This document shows positions 9,325 through 64,000 of a DNA stretch of 64,000 nt, piece by piece. The stretch spans positions 224,001-288,000 of the forward strand of contig CAWAGQ010000003.1 in the NCBI GenBank assembly GCA_963781585.1, given 5' to 3'. Position 1 is the stretch's first letter. Each line of letters opens with the position of its first letter. A model generated the notes under the pieces. That model saw only the letters and a list, made by a program, of their open reading frames with translations. It was not told the origin of the DNA and searched no databases. The translations under genes and the position numbers were made by a program. This stretch comes from an uncultured Gemmatimonadaceae bacterium. Lineage in GTDB: Bacteria; Gemmatimonadota; Gemmatimonadetes; Gemmatimonadales; Gemmatimonadaceae.

Positions 9325-9624
9325 ATGACTCTCGACGAGTACCAGCGCCAGGCGAGCCGCACGCTCAATCCCCGACTGGACGAAAGTGAACGGCTGGTCG
9401 ACGCCGCGGCCGGACTCGCCGAGGAGGCAGGCGAAGTGCTCGCGCACGTGCGCAAGCATCGTTTTCAGGATCGTCCCCTCGACCGCGACCGCGTTCGCGA
9501 GGAACTGGGTGATGCCCTCTGGTGCCTGGCCGCCACCGCGGGCGCCCTCGACATGTCGTTAGGCGAGGTGGCCGCGGACAATCTGCGAAAGATCGCCCGG
9601 CGGGCGCACGACAACGGCCCCTGA
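9325..9624 (+). CDS. MazG-like nucleotide pyrophosphohydrolase
   Basis: YQRQASRT, GLAEEAGEV, EELGDALW and NLRKI motifs. Confidence 0.88.
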   Translation: MTLDEYQRQASRTLNPRLDESERLVDAAAGLAEEAGEVLAHVRKHRFQDRPLDRDRVREELGDALWCLAATAGALDMSLGEVAADNLRKIARRAHDNGP

Positions 9625-9649
9625 CCGTCGGACTCTTCCCTCCCGGCCT

Positions 9650-10666
9650 CTAGTCTTCCGCCTGACCGAAAATCGCCATGTTCGAACTGTGGCCCGGATT
9701 CACCTTCTTCTCCGGATAGATCCAGTGCACGGCCTGATTCACCGCCGTGGCGACCTCGCCAAATCCCGTGGCAATCAGCTTCAGCTTTCCCGGATATGTC
9801 GCCACGTCTCCGGCCGCATAGATCCCCGCGCGCCCCGTCTCCATCCTGCTGTTCACCAGGATCTCGTCTTTCTCGAGCGTCAGGCCCCATTCCGCGATGG
9901 CCCCCAGATCGCTCACATATCCGAGCATCGGCAGCACCACGTCGCACGGCAGCGTAGTCACTTCCTTGCTCTTCGTCGCACGCACGGTCACGCCCGTCAG
10001 CATGCCGTTGTCGCTCACCACCTCGTGCAACTCGTGGAACGTCAGGACCGCGGCGCGTCCCGCAGCGGCCGCGCGCTGGATCTCGTTCACCGTGGCCGCA
10101 TGCGCCCGGAACCGGTCGCTGCGATGGACGAGCGTCACCGACGCCGCGCGATCCAGCAGCTGATGCGCCCAGTCGAACGCCGTGTCGCCACCACCGATGA
10201 TCACCACGCGCTGCCCGCGAAAGCGCTCCGGATCGGTGACCACGTCGAAGATCCCGCGGCCATACCAGGGATGCGCCGCGGTCTGCGGTAGGCGCCTCGG
10301 AGAAAATGCGCCGATGCCGGCGGCTATCACAATCGCGCGGGTCGGGAAGCGCGCGTCGGCGGTCCGCAACTCGAATCCCCCGTCTCCCTCCACCAGGCCC
10401 GTCACCCGCTGATTCAGGTGAGCGGCGCCGCGAAACTGGAGCGCTTGCTCTTCGAGCAGCTTTACGAAGTCCTTGGCCAGGACCTTCGGAAACCCGCCAA
10501 CGTCGAAGATGTACTTCTCGGGATAGAGCGCCGTGAGCTGGCCGCCGGCCTGCGGCAGCGCGTCGAGGATTTGCGCGGCCACGCCCCGCATCCCCGCGTA
10601 GAACAGACCGAAGAGTCCAGTCGGCCCGCCGCCGAGAATCGTGATGTCGACCGGATCGTGAATCAT
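9650..10666 (-). CDS. Thioredoxin-reductase-type ferredoxin-NADP(+) reductase
   Basis: GGGPTG, GGQLTALYPEKYIFDVGG, GGGDTAFD and YAAGD...GKLKLI; no CxxC motif. Confidence 0.88.
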   Translation of the reverse strand: MIHDPVDITILGGGPTGLFGLFYAGMRGVAAQILDALPQAGGQLTALYPEKYIFDVGGFPKVLAKDFVKLLEEQALQFRGAAHLNQRVTGLVEGDGGFELRTADARFPTRAIVIAAGIGAFSPRRLPQTAAHPWYGRGIFDVVTDPERFRGQRVVIIGGGDTAFDWAHQLLDRAASVTLVHRSDRFRAHAATVNEIQRAAAAGRAAVLTFHELHEVVSDNGMLTGVTVRATKSKEVTTLPCDVVLPMLGYVSDLGAIAEWGLTLEKDEILVNSRMETGRAGIYAAGDVATYPGKLKLIATGFGEVATAVNQAVHWIYPEKKVNPGHSSNMAIFGQAED

Positions 10667-10787
10667 CGTAGCAAGATAGCGCCGCGTGGAGTCGCAGTCG
10701 CGCTGGCGCACCGCGTGGCGTTGGGTTGACCCAACGCCCATCGCGTGCCGCTCGCTGCCCCCCGGTCTCGCTCGTATCCTTAGCGCA

Positions 10788-11399: not shown

Positions 11400-12557
11400 G
11401 TGCCTGACATCCCCATCCTCGGCTACATGGCGCGGGTGGTTCCGGGCCTCGTCGCCGAGGCCGGACCGATCGTGCACGCGGCAGCCCCGGCTCACATGTA
11501 CGCCGTCATCACCGATGACCACGTGGCGGCGAACTGGCTGACGCCGGTCCGACGTTCGCTCCAGCAGGTGCCCGGTGCGCAGGTCGTTGCGCGCGCAGTG
11601 GAGCCGGGTGAGGCACGGAAGACCCGCCAGACGTGGGCCGCCCTCACCGACTGGATGCTGGACGCCGGATGCCGCCGGGACACGACCGTCGTCGCGTTAG
11701 GCGGAGGGGTGGTGGGCGACCTGGCGGGTTTCGTGGCGGCCACGTTCATGCGCGGTGTACCGGTGGTCCAGATCCCGACCTCGCTGCTGGCGATGGTCGA
11801 TGCCGCCATTGGGGGCAAGACCGGAGTCGACGCACCGGCCGGAAAGAACCTCGTCGGCGCGTTCCATCAGCCGGCGGCGGTCCTGATCGACCCGCTGGTG
11901 CTGTCCACGCTCCCGGCGGCGCACATGCGGGCCGGCCTGGCCGAAGTCATCAAGCACGGGGCCATCGCCGATGCGGCCTTCTTCCGGGAAGCGGCGGCCT
12001 TCGGATGCCGCGTGCACGACGCAATCACCCGCGGCACCGCCCCACCGTGGAGCACCGAGGACGCCTCCGCGCTGCTGGCCCGGAGTGTCGCGATCAAGGG
12101 CGGGATCGTCTCGCGCGACGAGCGGGAGTCGGGCGAACGGCAGATCCTGAACGCCGGACACACGGTGGCGCACGCCGTGGAGTCCGCAAGCGAATACCGC
12201 ATCCTGCACGGCGAGGCGGTGGCCATCGGTCTGGTGGCCGAGTCGCGCATCGCCGAGCAGGGCGGCTGGGCGGAACCCGGGACCGCGCGGCTGCTCGAAT
12301 CCGCCCTGGCCGGCGCGGGACTGCCGGTGCAGCTCCCCTCGGAGCTCGCCGTCGACGTCCTGGTGCGCGCCATGCGGGTGGACAAGAAGATGCGTCAGGG
12401 ACGAATCGCCTTCGCGCTGCTGGCGGCTGTCGGTCGGCCGGCCGGAAGCGACGCGGGCGGTTGGAGCACGTTCGTCGCCGAAGACGACGTGCGATCGGTG
12501 CTGGCCGGGATGGCCGCGCCTGACGAGCCAGCGCGACCGGCGAAGCCGGCCGCCTGA
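11400..12557 (+). CDS. aroB: 3-dehydroquinate synthase
   Basis: LGGGVVGDLAGF, PTSLLAMVDAAIGGKT, GHTVAHAVE and HGEAVAIG. GGAGG precedes GTG 11400. Confidence 0.93.
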   Translation: MPDIPILGYMARVVPGLVAEAGPIVHAAAPAHMYAVITDDHVAANWLTPVRRSLQQVPGAQVVARAVEPGEARKTRQTWAALTDWMLDAGCRRDTTVVALGGGVVGDLAGFVAATFMRGVPVVQIPTSLLAMVDAAIGGKTGVDAPAGKNLVGAFHQPAAVLIDPLVLSTLPAAHMRAGLAEVIKHGAIADAAFFREAAAFGCRVHDAITRGTAPPWSTEDASALLARSVAIKGGIVSRDERESGERQILNAGHTVAHAVESASEYRILHGEAVAIGLVAESRIAEQGGWAEPGTARLLESALAGAGLPVQLPSELAVDVLVRAMRVDKKMRQGRIAFALLAAVGRPAGSDAGGWSTFVAEDDVRSVLAGMAAPDEPARPAKPAA

Positions 12558-12903: not shown

Positions 12904-12972
12904 GCGCGCCCACTCTGCAGGACCCTGTCGCGAGGAGAACTCGCCGAACTCCCTAACGGGTAAGGGGCGCGT

Positions 12973-13866
12973 ATGCAGCAAGTGACCGAGAGCCGGGCCA
13001 AAGGGTTCGTTCGTTCCTCCCCCTCCACAGCTTTCGATCAATACCTGCACGACATCCAGAAGCTCCCCCTCATCACCGATCCGGAAGAGGAACGCCGCCT
13101 GGCGCGTCGCGCCCAGAAAGGCGACGAGAAAGCCGCCGAGCGGCTGGTCACGGCGAACCTGCGATTCGTGATCTCGTACGTGAAGAAGTACCAGGGGCAC
13201 GGACTCGATCTCAGCGAGCTCGTCGCCATCGGGAACGAAGGCCTGCTGAAGGCGGTGCGGAAGTTCGATCCGGATCAGGGCGTGAAGTTCATTTCGTACG
13301 CCGTGTGGTGGGTGCGACAGGCGGTCCTCAAGGCGCTGGCCGAGCAGACGCGCTCGGTGCGCATCCCGCTCAACCAGAATTCGCAGCTGATCCGGCTGTC
13401 GCGCGCCGAGACGATCCTCTCCCAGGTGCTGAAGCGCGATCCCACCGATCACGAAATCAGCCGGCTGCTCGAGGACACAGTTGAGAACGTCCGCTCGGCG
13501 CGGCAGATGACCTCGACCGAAGTCTCCCTCGATGCTCCCATCGACCGCAGCGATCGCGACGCCGCCACGTTAGGCGAGCGGTTCTCCGGCGTCGATGGCA
13601 CCGAGATCGAGGAGCGGACTGACGGCCGGCTGATGCGCGAGTTCATCGACCGGGTCTTCGCCAAGTACCTCACTCCGCGGGAGCGCCGGATCCTCTACCT
13701 CTACTACGGGCTCGAGGAAGGGTCGGAGGCCATGACACTGGAACGCATCGGCGCGCTCATGGGCGTCACGCGGGAGCGGATCCGGCAGATTCGCGAGCGC
13801 GCCTTCGAGAAACTCCGCGAATCACCCGACGGCCGCGCCCTGGCGAGCTTCTGGACCGCCGCCTGA
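12973..13866 (+). CDS. Sigma-70 family RNA polymerase sigma factor (regions 1.2-4, no region 1.1)
   Basis: DQYLHDI, ANLRFVIS, GNEGLLKAVRKFDP, FISYAVWW and TLERIG...TRERIRQI. Confidence 0.93.
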   Translation: MQQVTESRAKGFVRSSPSTAFDQYLHDIQKLPLITDPEEERRLARRAQKGDEKAAERLVTANLRFVISYVKKYQGHGLDLSELVAIGNEGLLKAVRKFDPDQGVKFISYAVWWVRQAVLKALAEQTRSVRIPLNQNSQLIRLSRAETILSQVLKRDPTDHEISRLLEDTVENVRSARQMTSTEVSLDAPIDRSDRDAATLGERFSGVDGTEIEERTDGRLMREFIDRVFAKYLTPRERRILYLYYGLEEGSEAMTLERIGALMGVTRERIRQIRERAFEKLRESPDGRALASFWTAA

Positions 13867-14756: not shown

Positions 14757-16189
14757 CGGCACCGTCCGGGCTGGCGGCGCGTCTTGCGGCGATCGTCGGG
14801 GACAGGCACGTCCTGGAACGTCCGGCGGAGCTCCTGGTGTATTCGGCCGACGGACTGCCAGGGTATCGCAAGCGCCCGTCGCTCGCCGTGTTTCCGGGTG
14901 CGCGGGACGAAGCCGTCGACGTCGTCAGGCTGCTGGCCGCCGAGCGCGTCCCCTTCGTGCCGCGTGGGGCCGGCACAGGATTGTCCGGTGGGGCGCTCGC
15001 GGACGACGTCGTACTGTTGGGCATGAACCGGCTCACCCGCATTCTCGACATCGATGCCGCGAACCGTCGGGCTCTGGTGGAGCCGGGCGTGGTGAACGTG
15101 GCGCTGTCGCGGGCGGTCGCCCCGTTCGGCCTGTACTACGCCCCCGACCCCTCCAGTCAGGCAGCCTGCACGATCGGCGGGAATGTCGCCGAAAACGCGG
15201 GTGGTCCCCATTGCCTGAAGTACGGCACGACCGTCAATCATGTGATCGCGCTCACGGCGGTGCTCCCCGACGGCGCGGTCGTGGCGTTAGGCAGCGCCGA
15301 CGGTGAAGTGGAAGGCTACGACCTCCGCGGCGCGTTCGTCGGCTCGGAAGGCTGCTTCGGTGTCGCCCTGGACGTCACCGTGCGCCTCACACCGTTGCCG
15401 CAGGCCGTGTGCACCATGCTCGCCGATTTCGGCTCCATCGACGCCGCCGCCCTGGTGGTCTCGGCGATCATCGCCGAGGGCATCGTGCCCGCCGCTCTGG
15501 AGATGATGGATGGCCCGACGATCCGTGCCGTCGAGGCGTCCATCTACGCCGCGGGGTACCCCGTCGATGCCGCCGCCGTGCTCCTGATCGAGATCGATGG
15601 CCTCGCCGCCGGCCTCGAGCAGGACGTCGATCGCGTGGAGGAGATCTGTCGCCAGGGCGGATGCCGCTCGATCGTCACCGCACGCGACGAGGCCGTCCGT
15701 GCCAGGCTGTGGCAGGGCCGCAAGAAGGCGTTCGGCGCAATGGGACGCGTTTCGTCGCACCTGGTCGTGCAGGACGCGGTCGTACCCCGCACCAGACTGC
15801 CGGCCGTGCTCGCCGAAGTGGGGCGCATCGCGGCCGCGTACCACGTGAACGTCTGCAACGTATTCCACGCGGGCGACGGAAACCTCCACCCGAACATCGC
15901 CTACGATGGACACGACCGCGACGAGCGGGAGCGCGTTCACGCCGCGATGCGGGATATCATGCGCGCTTGCGTGGCGGCTGGCGGGAGCGTGACCGGCGAG
16001 CACGGCGTGGGACTCGACAAGCTGGATTACATGCCGCTGATCTTCTCCGACGACTCGCTCGATGCCATGTGCCGTTTGCGCGATGCCTTCGACCCGGACC
16101 GCCGTGCCAATCCGGGCAAGGTCGTTCCGGTGCGCTCCTGTCGCGAGTGGGCGGGAGTGCCGGCCACACGGGCGGTCGCGGCCACGTGA
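14753..16189 (+). CDS. glcD: Glycolate oxidase subunit GlcD (FAD-linked)
   Basis: PRGAGTGLSGG, APDPSSQAACTIGGN, FHAGDGNLHP and GEHGVG. Confidence 0.88.
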   Translation: MTAPSGLAARLAAIVGDRHVLERPAELLVYSADGLPGYRKRPSLAVFPGARDEAVDVVRLLAAERVPFVPRGAGTGLSGGALADDVVLLGMNRLTRILDIDAANRRALVEPGVVNVALSRAVAPFGLYYAPDPSSQAACTIGGNVAENAGGPHCLKYGTTVNHVIALTAVLPDGAVVALGSADGEVEGYDLRGAFVGSEGCFGVALDVTVRLTPLPQAVCTMLADFGSIDAAALVVSAIIAEGIVPAALEMMDGPTIRAVEASIYAAGYPVDAAAVLLIEIDGLAAGLEQDVDRVEEICRQGGCRSIVTARDEAVRARLWQGRKKAFGAMGRVSSHLVVQDAVVPRTRLPAVLAEVGRIAAAYHVNVCNVFHAGDGNLHPNIAYDGHDRDERERVHAAMRDIMRACVAAGGSVTGEHGVGLDKLDYMPLIFSDDSLDAMCRLRDAFDPDRRANPGKVVPVRSCREWAGVPATRAVAAT

Positions 16190-17370
16190 CGGGCAGGCTG
16201 GTGGACCGGCTGCCGACCGGGCTCTCGCGCGTGGACATTGCGGCGAACGAAACCGACGTCGTGGAGATCGTCCGTGCTGCGCACGCCGCCCGGACGCCGC
16301 TTCGCATCGTCGGCGGCGGCACCTGGCTGGAGGCGGGCCGGCCGGTGGCCGCGAAGACCGGCATCGACGTGTTGCCGCTGAGCGGTATCACCGAGTACGT
16401 GCCAGGCGACCTCACGCTCACGGCGCGGGCCGGTACCACACTGGCCGAGATCGACGCAGCCACCCGCGCTCACCGGCAGTGGCTCCCGCTGGATCCGTTC
16501 GGGCCGCCGCTCGGGACGCTGGGGGCCACGCTCGCGACGGCGTCGGCAGGGCCGCTCGCGTCCAGCATCGGGTCCCCCCGCGATGTGGCGCTGGGCCTCG
16601 CCTTCGTCTCGGGCGACGGGAAGCTCATCCGAGGCGGCGGTCGCGTGGTCAAGAATGTCGCCGGCTTCGACCTGGTCCGGTTGGCAGTGGGCGCCTGGGG
16701 CACGATCGGCGTCGTGGTCGAGGCCACGGTCAGGCTGCGCGCCCGGGCCGAGGCCGATGAAACCGTGGGCCTGCGGCTCCCGCCGACCGCGCGCGAGGTG
16801 GCGGAGCTGCTCGGTGCGATCCGCCGCGCCGCCGTTGCGCCGCTCGCGGCGGAGCTGATCTCTGCCAGCCTGGCCCAGCGGATCGGGGTGGGAGCGGAGA
16901 GCCTGCTGCTGGTGCGCCTGGCGGGAAACGCCGCGTCCGTCCGCGCGCAACGCGCCGAGACGGCGCGTTGCGCGCCGGCCGCGGACGTGGCGGCCGACGT
17001 ATGGGAACGCCTTGCCGGCGCCGAACCGCCGTCGTCCTGGATCGTTAGGCTGTCAGGCCGCCCGTCGGAACTGGCACGCCTCTGGGAGTGCGCACTCGGA
17101 TTGGTCGACGGCGCGGGTGGACTGGCGCACGCTTCCCTCGAGCGCGGCGTCGTGCGCTGCTGGCTCGACGGCGCGAACCCACCGATGCACGAGGCGGCCG
17201 TCGGGGCGCTCGACGCCGCCGGCACCCGGATCTTCGAGCGACTGCCGGCCGCCGTCTGGCTCCGCCTGACGGTCCCCGCCGCCGATGACCCGCTGTCACG
17301 CGCGGTGCGACACGCTTTCGACCCGGACCGCATTCTCAACCCCGGCATTCTCGGGGAGCTGCAATCGTGA
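16186..17370 (+). CDS. glcE: Glycolate oxidase subunit GlcE
   Basis: GTGA overlap with glcD; YVPGDLTLTARAG, GGRVVKNVAGFDL and FDPDRILNPG. Confidence 0.87.
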   Translation: MTGRLVDRLPTGLSRVDIAANETDVVEIVRAAHAARTPLRIVGGGTWLEAGRPVAAKTGIDVLPLSGITEYVPGDLTLTARAGTTLAEIDAATRAHRQWLPLDPFGPPLGTLGATLATASAGPLASSIGSPRDVALGLAFVSGDGKLIRGGGRVVKNVAGFDLVRLAVGAWGTIGVVVEATVRLRARAEADETVGLRLPPTAREVAELLGAIRRAAVAPLAAELISASLAQRIGVGAESLLLVRLAGNAASVRAQRAETARCAPAADVAADVWERLAGAEPPSSWIVRLSGRPSELARLWECALGLVDGAGGLAHASLERGVVRCWLDGANPPMHEAAVGALDAAGTRIFERLPAAVWLRLTVPAADDPLSRAVRHAFDPDRILNPGILGELQS

Positions 17371-19407: not shown

Positions 19408-20480
19408 TGGAAGCCCACACGCCTAACGCGATCGGACGCAGCGACGGACGCGGACCGGAGCCGCGGTCGCACGGTCCGTCGTCCGCCGGCAACCCGGTGC
19501 TGGAATACGACGCCCTCCGGGGCGCCGCCATCGTCCTCGACCGCAGTGATCGGACGCGGGCCACGTTCGCCGGACCGGCGGCGGCCGAGGTGCTCACCGG
19601 CCTGCTCACCAACGACGTTCCTGCGCTGACGCCCGGTCAGGGTCAATACGCGGCCGTGCTCACTCCCAAAGGGAAGATCATCGCCGACGTGCGCGTGTTC
19701 GCGCGCGACCAGGACCTGTTTGTCGATGCCCCCGCCCGCGCTTCGGCCGGGTGGTGGAACCTCGTCCGCAAATTCGTCAACCCGCGCCTGGCCCGCTATG
19801 CCGATGTCAGCGCGTCGCTCGGCGACATCGGAATCTTCGGCCTGGCGGCGGTGGGTGTGGTCGGCAGAATGTGCGGGCTGGGCCCCGAGGAGCTGACAGC
19901 GCTCGCTCCGTATGCGCACCGGCAGGTGCAGCTCGGGAGCGAGAAGGTCATGCTGGCTCGTGTGCCCGATGCCGGGTTGGATGGATTCGAGTTCTTCCCG
20001 GAGCTGGAGGCGGTGCTCGAGGTGCGTGCGCGCGCGATCCAGTGCGGCGCCACGCCCGCCGGCGCGGCCGCGTTCGAGATCGCCCGCATCGAGGCGGGAC
20101 GCCCCGAGTGGGGTCTGGACATGGATGACACGACCCTGCCCCAGGAGGCCAACCTCGACACGCTCCACGCCATCTCGTACACGAAGGGATGCTATACCGG
20201 GCAGGAGACGGTGGCCCGCGTGCATTTCCGCGGACACGTGAATCGTCACTTGCGTGGACTGGAGTTCGATCCAGCAGTCCTGCCGGTGGTCGGCGCCGAG
20301 CTGGTCGATGACGCCGAGCGTGTGGTCGGAGACGTACGAAGTGTCGCGCGCTCTCCGAGACTCGGCGGTGTGGCGCTGGCAATGGTGCGTCGCGAGGTGC
20401 AGCCGGGCGGGATACTCATGGCGAGGTGGCCGGAAGGCACGGTTCGCGTGAGTGTGCTCGAGCTCCCGTTCCCGCCCTGA
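19407..20480 (+). CDS. ygfZ: YgfZ/GcvT-like folate-binding protein
   Basis: Signature KGCYTGQETVAR; also LTPKGKI. Confidence 0.88.
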   Translation: MEAHTPNAIGRSDGRGPEPRSHGPSSAGNPVLEYDALRGAAIVLDRSDRTRATFAGPAAAEVLTGLLTNDVPALTPGQGQYAAVLTPKGKIIADVRVFARDQDLFVDAPARASAGWWNLVRKFVNPRLARYADVSASLGDIGIFGLAAVGVVGRMCGLGPEELTALAPYAHRQVQLGSEKVMLARVPDAGLDGFEFFPELEAVLEVRARAIQCGATPAGAAAFEIARIEAGRPEWGLDMDDTTLPQEANLDTLHAISYTKGCYTGQETVARVHFRGHVNRHLRGLEFDPAVLPVVGAELVDDAERVVGDVRSVARSPRLGGVALAMVRREVQPGGILMARWPEGTVRVSVLELPFPP

Positions 20481-22114: not shown

Positions 22115-22669
22115 TTGTCCACCTCCCGCACTGCCACCCATCCGGCGCCACGGTCCGGCCGCGGGCGGCGCCGGGCCCCTCCGGGCCGCGAGCCGGTCCT
22201 CGTGAGGGCCGCCGTAGGGGACGACGAGCCGGCGGTCACGGCGTTGCGGCTGGCGCTCCTGGCGGAGGAAGCGAGGAGTCCACTCTTCGCCCAGCCTCAT
22301 CCGCGCGCCGCAGACCGGGCGCGCCAACTCTCGGCCACGCAGCTGGCGGCACGGAACGAAGCGGTGCTGCTGGCCTTTGCCGGCGCCCACGCCGTCGGCA
22401 TGCTGCGCTGTTCGATCGCTCGCGGGTTTCCGCTCGTGCGCGACGCCCGCCACGCGGCGTTGACGTCGGCCTACGTTCGGCCGGAATACCGGCGCAAGGG
22501 CGTTCTCCGGGCCCTGCTGTCCGCCGCCGACGAATGGTGCCGAGCGCGTCGGCTCGGCGAGATGCGCCTGCGATGCACGGTGGAGAACGCTGGCGGCAAC
22601 GCCGCCTGGGAATCGTTAGGCTTCGCCCCCGCGGAGATCGTGCACCGCCGCCCGGTTCCCCGGTCCTGA
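22115..22669 (+). CDS. GNAT acetyltransferase
   Basis: YVRPEYRRKG motif A, and N...AAWESLGF. Confidence 0.82.
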   Translation: MSTSRTATHPAPRSGRGRRRAPPGREPVLVRAAVGDDEPAVTALRLALLAEEARSPLFAQPHPRAADRARQLSATQLAARNEAVLLAFAGAHAVGMLRCSIARGFPLVRDARHAALTSAYVRPEYRRKGVLRALLSAADEWCRARRLGEMRLRCTVENAGGNAAWESLGFAPAEIVHRRPVPRS

Positions 22670-22675: not shown

Positions 22676-23308
22676 GTGCCGGTCATCACCATCTCTCGCA
22701 TGTTCGGATCCGGCGGCTCGGAGGTCGCCCGCGGGGTGGCGCAGGCCCTTCGGTGGACGCTGGTGGACAACGCGTTCGTGGAGGGCGTGGCCGGGCGGCT
22801 CGGCACCACACCGGCAACGGTGGAAGCCATCGAAGAGCGGGTGCCCACACTGGCCGAACGGATTGCCGATGCGTTCGCCCTTGGCTCTCCGGAGGTGTTG
22901 CCGGCGGCCATGTCCACTCCCCTTCTGCCAACGGAAGAACGGGTGCTCCAGGTCACGCGCCGCCTCATCGACGAGACCCTCGCCCGCGGGCCGGCGGTGC
23001 TGGTGGGACGCGGCGCCCAGGCATACCTCGAACCGCGCGCCGACGCACTCCACGTCCTGTGCTGCGCGCCGCACGAGGCGCTTGTGGCTCGCGTGGCCGA
23101 GCGCGATCACCTGGCGCCGGACGAGGCCGACCGGCTGGTGCGCGAGAAGAACCAGCAACGCGCGCAGTTCGTGCAGGCCAACTGGGGACGGCAATGGCTC
23201 GCCCCGGAACACTATCATCTCTGTCTCAACACCACCTGGCTGGGGATCGATGCCGCGGTCGACCTGGTGGTGCAACGGGCGCGCATCCAGTTCGGCGCTG
23301 CTCGTTAG
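22676..23308 (+). CDS. Cytidylate kinase-like family protein
   Basis: VITISRMFGSGG, VLVGRGA and YHLCLNT. Confidence 0.85.
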   Translation: MPVITISRMFGSGGSEVARGVAQALRWTLVDNAFVEGVAGRLGTTPATVEAIEERVPTLAERIADAFALGSPEVLPAAMSTPLLPTEERVLQVTRRLIDETLARGPAVLVGRGAQAYLEPRADALHVLCCAPHEALVARVAERDHLAPDEADRLVREKNQQRAQFVQANWGRQWLAPEHYHLCLNTTWLGIDAAVDLVVQRARIQFGAAR

Positions 23309-23315
23309 GCACGCA

Positions 23316-25945: not shown

Positions 25946-27097
25946 ATGCCCGAGCTGCCATCGCTGGATCGGGAGGAGATCCACCGATACAGCCGCCATC
26001 TCCTCCTCCCCGAGGTGGGATTGGAAGGACAGCGCCAGTTCAAGGCCGCGCGTGTCCTCGTGGTCGGCGCCGGCGGGCTCGGATCGCCGGCCGCGCTCTA
26101 CCTCGCCGCCGCCGGCGTCGGGACGCTCGGATTGGTCGATTTCGACGTGGTGGACCTGACCAACCTTCAGCGTCAGATTCTCCATGGGACCAGGGACGTG
26201 GGCCGCTCCAAGCTCGAATCGGCGCGTGAGCGGATCGGCGACCTCAATCCGCACGTGCGCGTCGAGTGTTTCGAGACCCGGCTCACCTCCGCCAACGCCC
26301 TCCAGATCGCCGCCGGCTTCGACATCGTGGTTGATGGCACCGACAACTTCGCCACCCGCTATCTGGTGAACGATACCTGCGTGCTGCTAGGCAGGCCTAA
26401 CGTCTACGGCAGCATCTTCCGGTTCGAGGGCCAGGCGTCGGTGTTCGCGACGGCCGACGGTCCCTGTTATCGCTGCCTGTACCCCGAGCCGCCGCCCCCA
26501 GGCCTGGTTCCCAGCTGCGCCGAAGGCGGCGTACTGGGTGTCCTCCCGGGGCTGATCGGCAGCATCCAGGCGACCGAGACCTTGAAGCTGATTCTGGGTC
26601 GGGGCACGTCGCTGGTGGGACGGCTGCTGCTCGTCGACGCGCTGAACGTCCGGATACGGTCGGTGAACGTGCGCCGGAACCCGGGCTGTCCCGCCTGCGG
26701 TACCCGCGAGATTCGTGAGCTCATCGACTACGACCAGTTCTGCGGCGCCCAGCCGACCACCGACGGCGCGGCCGGCCAGGTTCCCGAGATCGCACCGCGC
26801 GAGCTGCTGGCTCGCCTCGCCGCGGGCGAGTCGGTCACGGTGCTCGACGTGCGGGAAGCGTACGAGCGCGCCATCGCCTCCATCGACGGCTCCCGCCACA
26901 TCCCGCTCGGCGCGCTCGAGCAGGCCATGGGCACCCTCGATCCGGGTACGGAGATCGTCGTCTACTGCCAGAGCGGCATTCGCAGCGCAGACGCGGTGCG
27001 CCGCCTGCGCGCCGCCGGTTTCACGAGGGTATGGAACCTGGTCGGGGGCATCAATCGCTGGACCGCGGACGTCGATTCCGCCGTCCGTATCTCCTGA
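25946..27097 (+). CDS. moeB: MoeB/MoeZ adenylyltransferase with C-terminal rhodanese domain
   Basis: RYSRH, GAGGLGSP, NLQRQI, CYRC and CPAC zinc motifs, and rhodanese YCQSGIRS. Confidence 0.9.
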   Translation: MPELPSLDREEIHRYSRHLLLPEVGLEGQRQFKAARVLVVGAGGLGSPAALYLAAAGVGTLGLVDFDVVDLTNLQRQILHGTRDVGRSKLESARERIGDLNPHVRVECFETRLTSANALQIAAGFDIVVDGTDNFATRYLVNDTCVLLGRPNVYGSIFRFEGQASVFATADGPCYRCLYPEPPPPGLVPSCAEGGVLGVLPGLIGSIQATETLKLILGRGTSLVGRLLLVDALNVRIRSVNVRRNPGCPACGTREIRELIDYDQFCGAQPTTDGAAGQVPEIAPRELLARLAAGESVTVLDVREAYERAIASIDGSRHIPLGALEQAMGTLDPGTEIVVYCQSGIRSADAVRRLRAAGFTRVWNLVGGINRWTADVDSAVRIS

Positions 27098-46965: not shown

Positions 46966-47982
46966 GTGACCGAAATTCTCCTGACCGGCGCTGCTGGATT
47001 CATCGGCTTCCACGTTGCGAGACGCCTTCTGGGAGTGGGCCATGTGGTCCACGGCGTGGACAACCTGAATGCCTACTACGACGTGGCGCTCAAAGAGGCC
47101 CGGCTGCAGCAGTTGGCGTCGGCCGAACGCTTCAGCTTCCACAAACTCGATCTGGCGGACCGGAGCGTGACGGCGGAGCTGTTCGCCGACCTGCGTCCTT
47201 CGATCGTCATTCATCTCGCGGCGCAGGCGGGAGTGCGTCATTCGCTCACGCATCCCGAGGAGTACGTCGACAGCAATCTGGTGGGGTTCGGCAACGTGCT
47301 CGAGGGTGCCCGCCAGGCGCAGGTGCAGCACCTGGCATACGCTTCTTCGAGCTCCGTGTATGGTGCCAATACGGTGGTTCCCTTCTCCGAGCATCAGGGC
47401 GTGGACCACCCGGTGAGCTTGTACGCGGCGACCAAGCGCGCGAACGAACTCATGGCGCACTCGTACAGCCACCTGTTTGCATTGCCGGTGACCGGACTGC
47501 GTTTCTTCACGGCATACGGGCCATGGGGGCGGCCGGACATGGCGGCGTTCATGTTCACCCGCGCGCTGTTCGAAGGCCGCACGATCGACGTCTATAACGA
47601 CGGGGCGATGTGGCGCGATTTCACGTACGTGGAGGATGTCGCGGAAGCGGTTGTTCGGGTGGCGCTCCGGCCACCGCAGGCCGACCACCAGTACGATGCG
47701 CAGCAGGCTGATCCCGCACACAGCAGTGCCCCCTTCCGGATCTACAACATTGGCAACTCTCAGCCGGTGCGGCTCTCGGATTTCGTGGCGATGCTCGAGC
47801 GCCTAACGGGACGCACTGCGCGGAAGCGCTCGCTTCCCATGCAGCCGGGTGACGTGCCGTACACATGCGCTGACACCGCCGATCTGGCTCGAGACGTGGG
47901 TTTCACGCCGACGACCTCGCTTGAGGAGGGACTGTCGCGCTTCGTGGCCTGGTACCGCGAGTACCATGGCCTGACAGACTGA
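46966..47982 (+). CDS. UDP-glucuronate 4-epimerase-like extended SDR
   Basis: TGAAGFIG, HLAAQAGVR, YAATK and GLRFFTAYGPWGRPDMA. Confidence 0.88.
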   Translation: MTEILLTGAAGFIGFHVARRLLGVGHVVHGVDNLNAYYDVALKEARLQQLASAERFSFHKLDLADRSVTAELFADLRPSIVIHLAAQAGVRHSLTHPEEYVDSNLVGFGNVLEGARQAQVQHLAYASSSSVYGANTVVPFSEHQGVDHPVSLYAATKRANELMAHSYSHLFALPVTGLRFFTAYGPWGRPDMAAFMFTRALFEGRTIDVYNDGAMWRDFTYVEDVAEAVVRVALRPPQADHQYDAQQADPAHSSAPFRIYNIGNSQPVRLSDFVAMLERLTGRTARKRSLPMQPGDVPYTCADTADLARDVGFTPTTSLEEGLSRFVAWYREYHGLTD

Positions 47983-57322: not shown

Positions 57323-58943
57323 GGTGCTGGTGGTCGGCTCGGGCGCGTCGGGCGTCCACTTCGCCCTCTCGGCGCTCCAGCGCGGGCATCAGGTGGTGAT
57401 GCTCGACGTGGGTTACGCTCCGGCACGCGAGCAACCGGCGCCGCAAGCGGCGTATCGGGGGCTCAAGGAGACGCTCGACGACCCGGTGGCGTATTTCGTG
57501 GGAGAGCGCGTGGACGGCGTGGTGTACCCCGGACCGGTCACGAAGCATTTCGGCATCCCGCCGTCGAAGGACTACGTCTTCGCGCGTCCTCCCGCGTTCG
57601 CGCTCTCCACGACCGGGTTCGATCCGATGATCTCGTTCGCCCGCGGGGGCCTCGCGGAAACCTGGACTGCGGGGTGTTACGAGCTGAGCGACCACGACCT
57701 GGCCGACTTCCCGATTTCCTTCGCCGACCTCGCGCCCTACTACGCCGAGGTGGCCGGCCGCATCGGCGTGTCGGGCGAGCGGGACGACATCGCGCGCTTT
57801 TCGCCCTTCACCGCGAGCTATCTCGACGCCCTGCCCCTCGACGCGCACTCGCGGCGCCTGCTCGACCGCTATGCGGGAGCGCGCGATCGACTCCAGCGCG
57901 AGCTCGGATTCCACATGGGACGCTCGCGCGTCGCCACCCTCTCGCGCGATCACGCCGGCAGGAGAGCATGCAGCGGTCTGGGGCGATGCCTCTGGGGTTG
58001 CCCGACCGGATCGTTGTATGCCCCGTCGATGACGCTGGGCGAATGTCTCACCTGGACGCAGTTCGAGTACCTCTCCGGGTGCGAGGTCCGGTACTTCGAC
58101 TACGACACCGCCGGACGGGTGACACGCGTGGTGGCCCAGGCCGCGACCGGCGCCGGAGCCCGCGAGTTCTCCGCCGACGTGATCGTGCTGGCGGCCGGGA
58201 CGCTGGGCACGTCACGCATCTACCTGGCCTCGGTTTCGCGGCGGGAGCGGCGCCAGGTCTCGTTAGGTGGCCTGATGGACAACCCGCACGCGGTCATGCC
58301 GTTCATCACCCCTGCCCACCTCGGCTCCGCCATGGAGCCGGACTCGTACCAGTTCCACCTGTTGGCCCTGGCATTGGAACGCGACGACGGCACGCAGGCA
58401 GCGCACGGGCAGATCACCACGTTGCGAGCGGCCGCTGTCCACCCGATCGTACAGAGCCTCCCGCTCGACCTGCGGCGCAGTCTGACGACCTTTCGCCGCC
58501 TGCGCGCGGCCCTCGGGGTCGCCAACCTGTGGAGTCCGGGCGTCCGTCACGCTGACGATGCGGTCACCATCCGCCCCGCCGACGCGGGGCGTGAGGTGCT
58601 GGAGATTCACTGCCGAAGCGATGCCGAGTCGGACCGTGCCGTGCGCGCCGCGATCGCGCGCGTCCGGCGCGCGCTCTCACTTCTGGGGTGCGTGGCGCCG
58701 CGTGCGCTGACGCAGGTACTCCCTCTGGGATCGAGCGCGCATTATGCAGGAACGCTTCCCATGTCGGTTGACGAGCACGAGCACACGTGCTCCGCCGACG
58801 GGCGGGTGCGCGGATTCGAGAACCTCATCGTCGCGGACGGAGCGGCGTTTCCCGGACTTCCAGCCAAGAACCTGACGTTCACGCTGATGGCGAACGCAGC
58901 CAGACTTGCCGACCGCCTGGGGCGCGTCGGCGGCGGGGCGTGA
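57315..58943 (+). CDS. GMC-family FAD oxidoreductase
   Basis: VVGSGASG, GGLAETW, C...GRCLWGCP, LAAGTLG, HYAGT and PAKNLTFTLMANA. Confidence 0.85.
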   Translation: MARVLVVGSGASGVHFALSALQRGHQVVMLDVGYAPAREQPAPQAAYRGLKETLDDPVAYFVGERVDGVVYPGPVTKHFGIPPSKDYVFARPPAFALSTTGFDPMISFARGGLAETWTAGCYELSDHDLADFPISFADLAPYYAEVAGRIGVSGERDDIARFSPFTASYLDALPLDAHSRRLLDRYAGARDRLQRELGFHMGRSRVATLSRDHAGRRACSGLGRCLWGCPTGSLYAPSMTLGECLTWTQFEYLSGCEVRYFDYDTAGRVTRVVAQAATGAGAREFSADVIVLAAGTLGTSRIYLASVSRRERRQVSLGGLMDNPHAVMPFITPAHLGSAMEPDSYQFHLLALALERDDGTQAAHGQITTLRAAAVHPIVQSLPLDLRRSLTTFRRLRAALGVANLWSPGVRHADDAVTIRPADAGREVLEIHCRSDAESDRAVRAAIARVRRALSLLGCVAPRALTQVLPLGSSAHYAGTLPMSVDEHEHTCSADGRVRGFENLIVADGAAFPGLPAKNLTFTLMANAARLADRLGRVGGGA

Positions 58944-59055: not shown

Positions 59056-60915
59056 TCAGGCGACGAGAAGGGAACGGCCCTCCAGCGTCGCGGTCAGGGG
59101 CACCGACAGCGCGTCGAGTATCGTCGGCGCGAGATCCAGCAGTGATGCGGACCCTTCCCGGAAGGAACGCGACATGAAAAGCACGCCCGGTACGAGGGTG
59201 GGATCAATGATGTGGTCGCCGCCCCATTTCCGCAGGTTGTCCTCGAACACCACCGCGGGCACGCTGCCTAACGCCGTATCCCAGGACACCCGGTAGCCTT
59301 CGGCAAAATCGACCACCACATCCGGCGACTCGTCGGCGAACGGTCCGGAATACAGCTGCCCGCGGGTGTGGGCCCCGCGCACTGCCACGACGCCGCGCTC
59401 CGGATCCACCAGTCCGGTGATGCGCCGAGCCACCTCGTCGCCTACGCGGTCCGCCTCGTCCCGGGCGACGATCCCCTCGGCATCTCGCCCGCGCACATTG
59501 ACGTAGACGCTTCCCAGTCCGAGTGCATAGGCGCGGGTGCGCCCCCAATCCACCTGTCGCAGAAAATCACCCGCCTCCGGGCCGGGCTGCACTCCAGCCT
59601 TCAACGCCAGGTATCCGTTGGCGTGCAACCAGGCATTGAGGTGGACGCCACGCTGAAACGACCTGAACCCGTGGTCGCTCAGGACCATGACCAGCGTGTC
59701 GTCGCCGCAGGCGTCGAGCACCCTGCCGACGACGCCGTCGCAGCGCTCGTAGTGTTCTTCGATGACGTGCCCGTACCGTGCGCGCTCGTCGGGCCGACGG
59801 CGATTGGCCGGGTGCTCCGGCTCGCCGAACCGCCAGAACATGTGCTGCACCCGATCCGGCGTGTCGAACAGGCAGAAGACAAGCCCGTTGCGCACTCGTT
59901 GCAGCTCAAGCATCAGCATGCGCTCGCGCTCGCGCATGACGTGCTCGCACTGCGCGAGAAATGCATCTTCCCCAAACCGTTCGTTCGTCAGTCCTGCATG
60001 ATCCTCCACCATGCCGGTCGTGTAGAACGGCCCCAGCTGTGCTGCCAGCTCGGCGGCGTACTCCCACGGGTGACTGATGGGAAAAGCCGGCGCCACCGGA
60101 TCGAAGTTCACGGGCGACGCGTGGAGCTCCACCGGCGACCCGGAGCCGACGAGCAGGAATCGCACCATTCCCGATGTGGATTGCAGAGGACCGGAGCGGA
60201 ACCTGAGGCGCAGCCAATCGCTCCACAGGCCCTCCCGAAGCTCCAGCGTGCGCGGCCGCCCGCGACTGAGGATCCGGGCGCAATGCGCTGAAGCATCGAT
60301 GCGCAGGGTAATCGCTTCGGTCACGTCGCCCCGCGTTCGCGGGTCGCGCGGTCCCACCAGGTGAGTCCGAAACTCGCCGCCCTCACCGGCCAGGCGCACC
60401 ACCTGTTCGCTGTCTCCGCGCGCCACATGGTCCGCGGTCGTGTAGAACGTCGAGGTGCCGATTCCGAGGCGCAGGTCGGGAACACCCATGCCCGAAAGCA
60501 ATCGTCCACGGAAGGCGGCCGGCGGATAGGTGCAGGGACACCGGATGATCGCCGATTCGACGCCGGCGTCAGAGAGGATCTCCCACACCGGCGTCCCGCG
60601 CCGGAGGTTCACGGCCTGTGGGGGGAGAAAGGCCCGGGTCTGTTCGTAGCGATTGAGACCGAGATCGGGAAGGTAGGTCGAGGGATCGCGTCGCAGAAAA
60701 TCGAAGATCCCATGACCCCCGGGATTCACCCCGGTCGCGAAGGTGGACCATGCCACCGGCGTCTGGGCCGGCGTCGTCGTCGCAACCCGCGAATACCCGC
60801 CGCGATCACGCAAGCGGGCCAGGTTGGGGAGTCGGCCGCGGGACAGCATCGCGTCCACAAGAGTGGGCTCGAAACCATCGAGCCCGAGAACGATCACCCT
60901 GGGTATCGCTCGCAC
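59056..60915 (-). CDS. Alkaline phosphatase superfamily (nucleotide pyrophosphatase/phosphodiesterase-type) protein
   Basis: VLGLDG, TPAQTPVAWST, DRVQH, SDHG and GDH; no signal peptide. Confidence 0.87.
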   Translation of the reverse strand: MRAIPRVIVLGLDGFEPTLVDAMLSRGRLPNLARLRDRGGYSRVATTTPAQTPVAWSTFATGVNPGGHGIFDFLRRDPSTYLPDLGLNRYEQTRAFLPPQAVNLRRGTPVWEILSDAGVESAIIRCPCTYPPAAFRGRLLSGMGVPDLRLGIGTSTFYTTADHVARGDSEQVVRLAGEGGEFRTHLVGPRDPRTRGDVTEAITLRIDASAHCARILSRGRPRTLELREGLWSDWLRLRFRSGPLQSTSGMVRFLLVGSGSPVELHASPVNFDPVAPAFPISHPWEYAAELAAQLGPFYTTGMVEDHAGLTNERFGEDAFLAQCEHVMRERERMLMLELQRVRNGLVFCLFDTPDRVQHMFWRFGEPEHPANRRRPDERARYGHVIEEHYERCDGVVGRVLDACGDDTLVMVLSDHGFRSFQRGVHLNAWLHANGYLALKAGVQPGPEAGDFLRQVDWGRTRAYALGLGSVYVNVRGRDAEGIVARDEADRVGDEVARRITGLVDPERGVVAVRGAHTRGQLYSGPFADESPDVVVDFAEGYRVSWDTALGSVPAVVFEDNLRKWGGDHIIDPTLVPGVLFMSRSFREGSASLLDLAPTILDALSVPLTATLEGRSLLVA

Positions 60916-61342: not shown

Positions 61343-61360
61343 CAAGGCAACGCTATTGCA
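61343..61360 (+). promoter_or_regulatory. Sigma-54 -24/-12 promoter for the PAPS synthase operon
   Basis: CAAGGCAACGCTATTGCA. Confidence 0.65.
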
Positions 61361-61530
61361 AGATCGGCGCGCCAACAAGGCGTGCGCGCCCGCAACGGTG
61401 CCCGCCAGCCCTCGACGCGCGTCGTTAGCGGTATCCATCCGCTATCTTAGCGCATGCGCGGCGAATGCGCTGTGTGGAAACGAGATACGATTCCGCCAAT
61501 GCCGATCCCCGAACTCTCTCAGGCAAGCCC

Positions 61531-63303
61531 ATGAGCAAAGGTGTCACAATCTGGTTTACTGGCCTATCCGGCGCGGGCAAGACGACTGTTGCCTCGCGCG
61601 TACACGAGGTATTGCAGGCCCGCCACATCCTCTCGGAGCGCCTCGATGGCGACGTGGTGCGTCAGAGCCTGACGCGTGACCTGGGCTTCTCCAAGGAGGA
61701 TCGGGACAAGAACATCGAGCGCGTGACATTCGTGGCCAAGCTCCTCACGCGGAACGGGGTGGTGGTCCTGACGGCATTCATCTCCCCCTATCGCCGCATG
61801 CGGGACAAGGCACGCGCGGAGATTGGCGACTTCCTCGAGGTCTTCGTGCAGACGCCGATGGAAGTTCTGCTCGAGCGCGACGTGAAGGGCATGTACCGAA
61901 AGGCCATGGCCGGCGAGATCGAGAACTTCACCGGCGTGAATGACCCGTACGAGGAGCCGCTCAAGCCGGATCTCGTGCTCGAGACAGCGCGCGAGACGAT
62001 CGACCAGAGCGTGGCGCGGGTGGTCCGGGTGCTGGAGGAGCGGGGTTACGTCCCGACTGCCGGCGAATCGGCTCAGGCCGTCACCACGGCCGACCGCGCG
62101 CGGAGCGTCGCAGAGAGCCGCCGGATTCCAGGCCCCAACGCACCGCACGGCGGCGTGCTGGTGGACCGCGAGCTCTCGGGCGATGCGCGCGCCGCCGCGC
62201 TCGCGCATGCGAAGGAGCTGCCCAAGCTGCTCCTGGACGAGCGCGAAACCTCGGATCTCGAGATGATCGGCGTTGGCGCACTGTCTCCGCTCACCGGCTT
62301 CATGCGCAAACTCGACTACGAAACGGTCGTCGAGACGATGCGGCTGTCGGACGGCACGGTCTGGTCGCTCCCCGTCACCAAAGCCGTGACCGCGAAGGAG
62401 GCGGCGTCGATCCGTGCCGGCGGCGAAGTGGCGCTGGTGGACGAGGAGGGATCGCCGCTGGCGGTCATGCAGGTCACCGACGTGTTCCCGTACGACAAGG
62501 AGCGCGAGGCTTCGTTGTGCTTCGGGACGACGGAGACGGCGCACCCGGGGGTGGAGCGGCTGTACCGACAGGGCGAGATGCTCATCGGGGGGCCCGTGCA
62601 GGTCCTTCGCCGGCCGCCGCATGACACGTTCGGACAGTATCGTCTCACGCCGTTGGAGACGCGCCGGCGCATGGACGAAGCGGGGTGGAAGACGGTCGTT
62701 GCGTTCCAGACGCGCAACCCCGTGCATCGCGCGCATGAGTATCTCCAGAAGGTTGCGCTGGAGACTGTCGATGGTCTGCTCCTGCATCCCCTGGTGGGGG
62801 CGACGAAGTCGGACGACGTGCCCGCCGAGGTGCGCATGCGGACGTACGAGGAAATCCTGTCCCGTTACTATCCGGCGCATCGGGTGTTGCTCTCGGTTTT
62901 CCCGGCGGCGATGCGGTACGCCGGTCCGCGCGAGGCGGTGTTCCACGCCATCTGTCGCAAGAACTACGGCTGCACGCATTTCATCGTGGGGCGCGATCAT
63001 GCGGGCGTGGGGAACTACTACGGGTCGTACGACGCCCAGGAGCTCATCGATCGGTTCCCCGCGCACGAGCTGGGAATCACGGCGATGAAGTTCGAGCACG
63101 CGTTCTTCTGCCGCATCTGTGGTAACATGGCTTCGGCCCGAACCTGTCCCCACGGACGCGAGCACCATGTGGTGCTGAGCGGGACCAGGGTGCGCGAGAT
63201 GCTGACCAACGGCGAGCTGCCGCCACCCGAGTTTTCGCGGCCGGAGGTGGCCCGCATTCTCATGGAGTCGTACCAGGAGCAGGCGTCCGCGGCGGAGCGA
63301 TGA
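61531..63303 (+). CDS. cysC-sat: Bifunctional APS kinase (N-terminal) / ATP sulfurylase (C-terminal) PAPS synthase
   Basis: WFTGLSGAGKTT, LDGD, DVKGMY and FTGVNDPYE, then PHGG, LSPLTGFM, FQTRNPVHRAH, GPREA and HFIVGRDHAG, all in one frame. Confidence 0.92.
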   Translation: MSKGVTIWFTGLSGAGKTTVASRVHEVLQARHILSERLDGDVVRQSLTRDLGFSKEDRDKNIERVTFVAKLLTRNGVVVLTAFISPYRRMRDKARAEIGDFLEVFVQTPMEVLLERDVKGMYRKAMAGEIENFTGVNDPYEEPLKPDLVLETARETIDQSVARVVRVLEERGYVPTAGESAQAVTTADRARSVAESRRIPGPNAPHGGVLVDRELSGDARAAALAHAKELPKLLLDERETSDLEMIGVGALSPLTGFMRKLDYETVVETMRLSDGTVWSLPVTKAVTAKEAASIRAGGEVALVDEEGSPLAVMQVTDVFPYDKEREASLCFGTTETAHPGVERLYRQGEMLIGGPVQVLRRPPHDTFGQYRLTPLETRRRMDEAGWKTVVAFQTRNPVHRAHEYLQKVALETVDGLLLHPLVGATKSDDVPAEVRMRTYEEILSRYYPAHRVLLSVFPAAMRYAGPREAVFHAICRKNYGCTHFIVGRDHAGVGNYYGSYDAQELIDRFPAHELGITAMKFEHAFFCRICGNMASARTCPHGREHHVVLSGTRVREMLTNGELPPPEFSRPEVARILMESYQEQASAAER

Positions 63304-64000
63304 CGGCACCGGGTTCGCACGAGCGGTTTGCCGACCTGCAGCTGCACTCGTCCGCGTCGGACGGATCGGATCAGCCGTCCGAGGTGGTGCGGCGGGCCGC
63401 CGGGCTGGGATTCGCGGCCATTGCGATCACCGATCACGACACGATGGCCGGCGTGCCGGAGGCCCGGGCCGCGGCCTCCTCGTTAGGCATCGAACTGCTG
63501 CCGGCCTGCGAGCTGTCCACGCTCGACGGCGACCGACAGGTGGATCTGCTCGCCTACGGCATTTCGCCCGACGACGCCGAGTTCGGCGCCGTGCTGGCCC
63601 AGCTGCGAGGCGGCCGCCTGGGACGGGCGCTCGGCATGGTACAATGCCTCAACGACCTTGGATACAAGGTCTCGTGGGACCGGGTGCAAGCCCTCGCCGG
63701 GAGCGAAAACGTGGGCCGCCCCCACGTGGCCCGGGCGATGGTGGAGGCGGGCGTGGTGCCCGACGTGAAATCCGCGTTCACCGACAAGTTCATCGGCGAT
63801 GGCGGTCGGTGCTACGTGCAGCGCGTGAAGATCGCGCCGCCGGAAGCCATCGCCCGGATTCACGCGGCGCAGGGCGTCGCCGTGGCTGCCCACCCCGGCC
63901 GCACCGGCCTCTCTGACCAGGACCTGTCCGTCCTGGCCGAGGCGGGGCTCGACGGGCTCGAGGTGTTCTATCCACGTCACTCCGCTGGCGAGACGGCGCG
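63300..64000 (+). CDS. PHP-domain metal-dependent phosphoesterase (TrpH/YciV-like), truncated by the window end
   Basis: Not in the ORF track. ATGA overlap with the upstream gene; DLQLHSSASDG, AITDHDT, GRPHVARAM, AAHP and GLEVFYPRH. Confidence 0.85.
   Translation, partial: MTAPGSHERFADLQLHSSASDGSDQPSEVVRRAAGLGFAAIAITDHDTMAGVPEARAAASSLGIELLPACELSTLDGDRQVDLLAYGISPDDAEFGAVLAQLRGGRLGRALGMVQCLNDLGYKVSWDRVQALAGSENVGRPHVARAMVEAGVVPDVKSAFTDKFIGDGGRCYVQRVKIAPPEAIARIHAAQGVAVAAHPGRTGLSDQDLSVLAEAGLDGLEVFYPRHSAGETA

Follow-up and report, generated by a model that had tools for sequence, protein, structure and literature searches.

An over-represented, asymmetric octamer in some Gemmatimonadales genomes, possibly a tag of self DNA

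Hyper-abundant words with a known reader have been described for only two bacterial families, namely the DNA uptake sequence (DUS) of the Neisseriaceae and the uptake signal sequence (USS) of the Pasteurellaceae (the receptor is ComP, and ComN is predicted). Passages of a preprint describe uptake sequences as present in hundreds to thousands of copies, within and between genes, enriched in the core genome and absent from recently acquired genes (bioRxiv 10.1101/2025.10.24.684340). The octamer HIP1 (highly iterated palindrome 1, GCGATCGC) of cyanobacteria is still unexplained after decades. Here we report a third, independent case, from a poorly studied soil phylum: the asymmetric octamer CGTTAGGC, noticed in a 64,000-nt stretch of DNA (the window, G000:C3:224001-288000) from the assembly of an uncultured Gemmatimonadaceae bacterium (G000; 5.72 Mb, 17 contigs, 67% GC). 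The best matches to the citrate synthase of G000 come, at 74-77% identity, from metagenome-assembled genomes with the labels Gemmatimonadota, Gemmatimonadales or Gemmatimonadaceae. Its over-representation is confirmed and is stronger than the first-pass annotation of the window had supposed. The reading that we favour, with a probability of about one in three, is that CGTTAGGC may act in certain Gemmatimonadales as a self-DNA tag at the level of the DNA fragment, most like a DNA uptake sequence.

The window contains 16 copies of CGTTAGG against 2.39 +/- 1.43 expected (none of 100 dinucleotide shuffles reached 16), and 14 of these extend to CGTTAGGC, for which 1.14 copies are expected; the first-pass annotation had given the same 16 sites, each in the same position and strand, and the same count of octamers. 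Ten of the 16 lie within 9.5-27.3 kb, and Rfam gave no family match in the window. In the whole genome CGTTAGGC has 724 forward and 718 reverse copies (1442 in all), compared with expectations of 89, 44 and 51 under Markov models of order 1, 2 and 3, and it ranks first among the 8-mers by z-score at orders 2, 3 and 4. Orders 5 and 6 expect 1214 and 1417 copies. Agreement with a fifth-order expectation had been named as evidence against the motif, but the comparison is judged invalid as a refutation, because the 6- and 7-mers that enter these models are almost all copies of the motif (1706 of the 1849 CGTTAG in G000 lie in CGTTAGG). Codon-preserving shuffles (n=30) of the called genes (3996 open reading frames (ORFs) from a home-made caller, about 79% of the DNA) gave 18.9 +/- 5.2 sense copies against 711 observed (37-fold) and 27.2 +/- 5.4 antisense copies against 309 (11-fold), so that the excess stands in the comparison that the first-pass annotation had proposed for it.

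The frame could be assigned for 983 of 1441 sites (458 were ambiguous), and the counts are approximate because of the home-made gene caller: 655 sites read NCG-TTA-GGC, 231 G-CCT-AAC-G (antisense), 55 GC-CTA-ACG and 18 C-GTT-AGG-C, and 24 are in stop-containing frames. Half of the TTA codons of the called genes (671/1342) stand within CG-TTA-GGC, and 56% of the TTAG/CTAA tetramers (1706 of 3056) lie inside CGTTAGG, which extends to the genome the earlier observation that more than half of them belong to the motif. The word spells 671 of the 4432 [ASTP]LG tripeptides (15%) and 247 of the 792 xPN[VADEG] contexts (31%), and the other two coding frames are realised at 1.3% and 2.8% of possible contexts. 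It is written by synonymous choice against codon bias, mostly via the almost unused codon TTA, for which a tRNA-Leu(UAA) is present in G000. The first-pass annotation had read TTA in nine window sites; this count could be verified only in part, with six NCG-TTA-GGY sites in Pfam-supported ORFs, because sites 9557, 12952, 17043, 22614 and 63481 lie outside verifiable ORFs. Its reading of CGT-TAG at 23303 as the stop of a gene was correct (Table 1).

The word is not confined to coding sequence. Short intergenic gaps (202 kb) carry 63 copies against 3.65 expected (17-fold), at a density of 0.31/kb compared with 0.23/kb in genes, and gaps between tandem, convergent and divergent genes have the word at similar densities. 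The multiple frames, the antisense copies and the copies in gaps make the word a feature at the DNA level, on which coding is merely a constraint. They uphold the earlier view that protein sequence does not explain it, and Pro-Asn, Val-Arg, Leu-Thr and stop frames are in use besides the Leu-Gly frame, to which the sites might have been limited. Together with conservation above background (see below), they also bear out that selection (or drive) acts on the word at the DNA level. A peptide or translation effect was rejected in view of the antisense and intergenic copies and of the greater use of the word in the most codon-biased genes. We also rejected a longer repeat or mobile element, because the flanks of the 1442 copies show little other than codon periodicity (with weak avoidance of a preceding C, and G or A following) and at most three copies share the same 58-nt context.

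To see how far the word extends, 41 relatives of G000 and 301 genomes of the phylum were surveyed. In both sets, strong enrichment is confined to one order of Gemmatimonadota and is patchy within it: family f1 includes genomes with 6360 (G009), 4469 (G305), 4141 (G298), 3896 (G241) and 1100 (G166) copies, plus others, in family f2 only the genus g79 is enriched (up to 1061 copies), and family f3 has 561 (G040), 345 (G036) and 177 (G038). Every genome of the other orders and classes has 70 copies or fewer (G008, G086, G125 and G204 enter as motif-poor rows only, and no claim depends on them). G294 has 66 copies and belongs to the same genus (g51) as G241 and G298, with about 4000 each. A tree built from RpoB of 30 relatives (the 11 others of the 41 lack the full locus) groups G000, G015 and G009 together with a support of 99 and implies at least four to five changes between the rich and the poor state. 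Plasmids 1 and 2 of the cultured Gemmatirosa kalamazoonensis KBS708 (200 kb sampled) carry 132 copies against 2.5 expected, about one per 1.5 kb, and CGTTAGGC is the top 8-mer of this sample. Since rich and poor close relatives exist, comparative genomics is possible, and since a cultured, fully sequenced type strain carries the word, its reader and function can be sought directly. In the literature the exact octamer turned up only in primers and unrelated papers, and no report of an over-represented octamer or 8-mer in Gemmatimon* was among the matches listed. In practice, the word can serve to tell native from acquired DNA, both in these genomes and in metagenome bins.

The arrangement of the copies bears on what kind of reader might be involved. 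An over-represented 8-mer at kilobase spacing recalls Chi and the FtsK-orienting polar sequences (KOPS), the density of one per 4 kb resembles that of Chi in E. coli, and on contig C4 the copy-rich strand switches with GC skew, as a polar word read by a DNA translocase or helicase-nuclease might do. The strand skew that the first-pass annotation had thought worth examining disappears, however, once gene direction is controlled: the Leu-Gly frame is realised at 245/1565 contexts in leading and 160/991 in lagging genes (15.7% vs 16.1%, p=0.74), the Pro-Asn frame at 84/280 and 65/187 (30% vs 35%, p=0.31), and the 455 copies on the G-rich strand against 396 on the other are explained by gene direction. 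Replication-strand polarity is absent. The excess is also far larger than that of Chi or KOPS, RecC was found in one of the 41 relatives (G014) and not in G000, and no AddAB-sized PDDEXK_1 ORF was found in G000 (only weak hits in ORFs of about 560 aa), so that we consider a Chi- or KOPS-type word extremely unlikely. Of the functions put forward in the first-pass annotation, Chi and KOPS or translocase sites thus fail, a methylation mark is disfavoured (see below), and the class of DUS/USS-like or HIP1-like words remains.

The copies avoid each other. In G000 only 29 neighbour pairs lie within 300 bp against 105.6 expected, and between 300 and 500 bp the ratio is still 0.59; for G009, 8 pairs within 100 bp were observed against 36 expected, and the coefficient of variation of spacing is 0.86. 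The deficit is present in same-strand and opposite-strand pairs alike. The realised fraction in G000 rises with GC content at third codon positions (GC3), a mere proxy for the residence time of a gene, from 1.6% (GC3 <0.72) to 26% (>0.85).

Sites are conserved among relatives, as the first-pass annotation had suggested examining. In 338 kb aligned with G001, of the same genus (87.6% DNA identity), 63 of the 81 G000 sites are kept (78%), whereas the figure is 40% over all 8-mers and ranges from 26 to 52% in ten control 8-mers; 18 sites are found only in G000 and 8 only in G001, and the non-matching states are mostly one letter off. Flanking divergence equals that around control 8-mers, for which reason recent exchange around the sites was rejected. 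Contigs C5 and C8 of G000 itself share 72 sites (14 only in C5, 16 only in C8) at 88% identity. These two contigs are syntenic over 358 kb and the assembly has a contamination of 7.19%, therefore the assembly seems to combine portions of two related genomes, or else to contain a very large old duplication. In orthologues of G000 and G009 (99 high-scoring segment pairs, 56% amino-acid identity), 33 and 144 sites were found, 8 of which coincide, and at 43 conserved [ASTP]LG positions G000 has 7 sites, G009 15 and both 5 (2.4 expected; odds ratio 6.5, p=0.04). Two alignment columns of rpoB carry the word in four genera, and in RpoB of the genus g51 a Phe -> Leu change creates a site. Poor G003 showed no relic codons opposite G000 sites (rare Leu codons at 1/19, vs 6/63 at controls).

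These conserved sites lend themselves to another explanation, which ranks close behind the uptake reading and is nearly as probable: CGTTAGGC could be a directly selected binding word for a chromosome-associated protein (of the nucleoid, or of a repair or defence system that spares word-bearing DNA, the word being a non-polar self mark), kept by purifying selection at each site, as has been argued for HIP1. Conservation of the 8 bp alone within normally diverging flanks would agree with it, as would the spacing that is more even than random, the dense word on the megaplasmids of G. kalamazoonensis, its scarcity in atypical (low-GC3) genes, the shared rpoB columns and the co-occurrence in G000 and G009 above independence; for HIP1 a 15-300-fold excess with conserved sites is likewise described in part of a published account (PMC5861425). 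Yet no reader was found among the genes tested, the patchy presence demands that such a reader was repeatedly lost or transferred, and polarity is absent. Moreover, no nucleoid protein is known to us that recognises an exact, asymmetric 8-mer spaced at one copy per 1-4 kb, which counts against a binding word.

The tolerance of the word to change was assessed against codon shuffles from which the motif codons had been taken out. Among the one-letter deviants in G000, TGTTAGGC is enriched 5-fold, CGTCAGGC 3-fold and CGTTATGC 2.3-fold, and CGTTAGGT 8-fold in a separate baseline run. All substitutions at positions 2 and 7, plus G>A at position 6, are depleted to 0.1-0.4 of expectation (G>A at position 6, 4 vs 41.5; at position 7, 2 observed vs 12.5). 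The tolerated changes are T at position 1, C at 4, T at 6 and T at 8, and G009 shows the same word with the same pattern of tolerated variants (321 copies in 260 kb), as do the plasmids of G. kalamazoonensis. In G000 CGTCAGGC has an extended context, CTCGTCAGGCR, with 424 copies; CTCGTCAGGC, with 424 copies in G000, does not rank with the top words in the sample of G001 and might be another, lineage-specific form of the word.

In several respects the word is like HIP1, being an octamer that is tens-fold over-represented and written into codons, with sites conserved between species, some lineages without the word, and deviants mostly at the outer letters. HIP1 differs in that it is palindromic and contains a methyltransferase site, whereas the word here is asymmetric and no cognate methyltransferase was found (the C5 type occurs in 5/41 genomes, and one published methylome lacks the motif). 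Elhai's model for HIP1, in which methylation-dependent mismatch (very-short-patch-like) repair creates and maintains the word, was considered, since deviants concentrate at the first and last letters (TGTTAGGC, CGTTAGGT) and the core deviants with G>A at positions 6 and 7 are depleted, a bias also reported for HIP1 in part of the source (PMC4390886), and since G000 has a C5-methyltransferase and Vsr in one open frame. This 779-aa single frame (G000:C7:476337-478676; L009 661-3000) joins an XRE-like helix-turn-helix N-terminal region, a C5 DNA methyltransferase and Vsr, and it is the one C5-methyltransferase of G000. Only two relatives, both motif-poor (G007 and G019), have a full counterpart, G002 and G034 have pieces of the Vsr part alone, and PF00145 was detected in no more than 5 of the 41 genomes, with no match in G009, G001, G005, G014, G020, G023, G024, G036, G038 or G040; the fusion was rejected as a driver because it does not track richness. 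A site-autonomous bias also does not predict repulsion between sites, and non-transition core deviants are depleted too. The methylation that the first-pass annotation had thought might be visible in long-read data did not appear: the SMRT (single-molecule real-time) methylome of G. kalamazoonensis lists only RGATCY, ATGCAC and CCAGN7TCA (PMC3974934), with no m6A or m4C motif that matches, although SMRT would miss m5C. Repair of this kind seems very unlikely to account for the word.

What remains to be explained is a word that is neutral in orientation, equally dense in coding and non-coding DNA, repelled from its own copies, restricted to native DNA and maintained at its sites, which points to a reader that scores fragments and to a long accumulation in situ. 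According to the self-tag reading, CGTTAGGC would be a double-strand recognition word that marks long-resident "self" DNA and is counted per fragment and not per site. A component of DNA uptake (or of another kind of DNA transfer) would prefer fragments that carry the word, and word-bearing alleles would displace word-less alleles through homologous recombination; from such preference and replacement the word would accumulate wherever coding permits and be retained once there. We infer that the reader would act on whole fragments and belong to DNA uptake, and that these bacteria would be transformable. Uptake is preferred here because biased DNA uptake is the only known mechanism with these properties. 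Like DUS and USS, CGTTAGGC is short and asymmetric, is repeated hundreds to thousands of times in both orientations, lies between genes and, inside them, in the frames of least cost, can alter proteins, and is core-enriched and scarce in acquired DNA (here by the GC3 proxy). Among uptake genes, ComEC was found in G000 and in 40 of the 41 relatives, and a regular expression, used alone, picked out nine prepilin-like ORFs in G000.

Several observations weigh against the uptake reading. The word has 8 letters, compared with 9-12 in DUS and USS. About half of the copies of DUS and USS are located in terminators, frequently as inverted pairs, as passages of the preprint cited above state (bioRxiv 10.1101/2025.10.24.684340), whereas only 18 neighbour pairs within 200 bp, in any orientation, were found here, and terminator copies or inverted pairs are almost absent. 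The word is patchily distributed in the order, one word is common to three families, and poor G294 stands beside congeners with about 4000 copies. Known uptake sequences are family-wide and have dialects; in a 400-kb sample of the 3.8 Mb of poor G003, no alternative 8-mer of comparable abundance was found. ComEC occurs in rich and poor genomes alike and does not separate them. No homologue of ComP was found, in that ComP_DUS (PF16732) has no match in G000 and a single match over the cut-off among the relatives, in poor G011. Conserved sites with normal flanks fit direct selection per site as well as drive. None of the papers searched couples Gemmatimon* with "uptake sequence", and to our knowledge natural transformation has not been reported in Gemmatimonadota. 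No tested gene tracks motif richness: RecC, ComEC, ComP_DUS and the integron integrase IntI were each rejected as discriminating genes.

The word coincides with a known recombination site. Part of the source gives the attC core site of integrons as GTTRRRY and the inverse core as RYYYAAC (PMC3053210), and CGTTAGGC equals the attC core of this order, GTTAGGC, plus a 5' C (seven of its eight letters). In motif-poor G027 and G025 the octamer matches form the 3' termini of attC sites, within cassette arrays that adjoin IntI genes (G027:C80, G025:C26); contamination or transfer from a rich genome had been considered for these clustered matches and was rejected when they proved to be integron arrays. 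L001 has 23 sites within 20 kb, all on one strand, and five of the seven that were folded give bulged hairpins of the form GCCTAAC...GTTAGGC. In G000 itself an IntI gene (434 bits, cut-off 265) was found, and contig C7 bears an array with attC sites ending in the octamer. IntI over the curated cut-off occurs in 26 of the 41 relatives, and poor G294 has two over the family cut-off and a third at 258 bits; none over the cut-off was found in rich G005, G015 and G024, and in G009 the gene is broken across three frames. The order commonly has chromosomal integrons.

An integron integrase, or a relative of it, might therefore be the reader, in which case the dispersed copies would be simple integrase sites through which the genome is linked to cassette traffic. 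The identity of word and core, the arrays beside IntI in the poor relatives and in G000 itself, and the low odds of a chance match between the top 8-mer and this 7-mer (~2e-4 per motif considered) speak for this. The dispersed copies, however, lie in conserved housekeeping genes at synonymous positions, and they have no attC partner arm, inverse core, hairpin, flank conservation or adjoining integrase gene; attC pairing (the core matched to RYYYAAC within a 57-141-nt imperfect palindrome) was found only in L001, L002 and the array copies on C7 of G000. The base 5' of the octamer is mostly C or T in attC, whereas among the dispersed copies C is the least frequent (12%). The variant CGTCAGGC no longer has an intact GTT triplet but is enriched all the same. 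Poor genomes have IntI too, it is not over the cut-off in three rich ones, and insertion targets within genes are expected to be selected against. An integrase as reader is unlikely on balance, and the match of the word to the integron core is unexplained. A combined scheme, for which we see a still slimmer chance, is that some Gemmatimonadales use the attC core itself as a self-DNA or uptake tag. An uptake (or other transfer) reader tuned to CGTTAGGC would at first have been used for the capture of cassettes, because every cassette already carries one copy, and drive would then have spread the word through the genome. If true, natural transformation would be tied to the integron cassette pool, and the chicken-and-egg origin of uptake sequences would have a start. 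The identity with the core, if not a coincidence, touches on how cassettes circulate and arise.

Several observations concern the integrons themselves. The cassette arrays of the order comprise 8 to >23 attC sites of about 85-95 nt (G000:C7:160000-187000; L001 1-20000; L002 1-9000), and the integrase of G000 (C7:185885-186829) is on the same strand as its cassettes. Three identical elements (>=1.9 kb, with a 303-aa tyrosine recombinase) are found in G000 at C7:172407-173237, C7:183006-183836 and C13:309021-309851; two of them lie inside the integron array, and each begins at a GTTGAAC core-like boundary.

The copies in the window are listed in Table 1.

Table 1. CGTTAGG and CGTTAGGC copies in the window, with frames assigned in Pfam-supported ORFs
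Copy	Position	Strand	Context
CGTTAGGC	9557..9564	+	outside any verified ORF
CGTTAGGC	11695..11702	+	DHQ synthase gene, GCG-TTA-GGC (Ala-Leu-Gly)
7-mer (CGTTAGG + G)	12952..12958	-	between ORFs 11364-12557 and 12973-13866
CGTTAGGC	13568..13575	+	sigma-70 gene, ACG-TTA-GGC (Thr-Leu-Gly)
CGTTAGGC	15285..15292	+	FAD-oxidase gene, GCG-TTA-GGC
CGTTAGGC	17043..17050	+	outside verified ORFs, gap 16189-17367
CGTTAGGC	19421..19428	-	antisense in GCV_T gene, G-CCT-AAC-G (Pro-Asn)
CGTTAGGC	22614..22621	+	between ORFs 20610-22082 and 22676-23308; no verified ORF
CGTTAGGC	23303..23310	+	TAG is the stop of ORF 22676-23308 (cytidylate-kinase-like)
CGTTAGGC	26395..26402	-	antisense in ThiF-rhodanese gene, G-CCT-AAC-G
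CGTTAGGC	27223..27230	+	HhH-GPD glycosylase gene, C-GTT-AGG-C (Val-Arg)
CGTTAGGC	36454..36461	+	Wzz/GNVR tyrosine-kinase gene, GCG-TTA-GGC
CGTTAGGC	47801..47808	-	antisense in epimerase gene, GC-CTA-ACG (Leu-Thr); polysaccharide cluster
7-mer, variant CGTTAGGT	58261..58267	+	GMC oxidoreductase gene, TCG-TTA-GGT
CGTTAGGC	59266..59273	-	sense in minus-strand phosphodiesterase gene, GCG-TTA-GGC
CGTTAGGC	63481..63488	+	3' of ATP-sulfurylase gene; no verified ORF

A polysaccharide-synthesis cluster (34263-57000) occupies part of the window, with a Wzz-type kinase, a sugar transferase, glycosyltransferases and epimerases at a lower GC content (0.64-0.66). It has only one site in about 22 kb, and the copy in the epimerase gene is the sole one between 36461 and 58261; this word-poor cluster is probably more recently acquired DNA. 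Other abundant words of G000 are AGGCCAAAGG (184 copies) and AGGCCATAGG (68), and a small repeat family of its own is suggested by ATGCCGTCAGGCGT, which 77 copies have in common. In motif-poor G003 (C4:1-400000) a 10-mer family (ACAGTCGGAC / GACTGTCCGA) is present in about 15 copies per 400 kb, together with CAAGGGCAAG, and both resemble small repeat elements.

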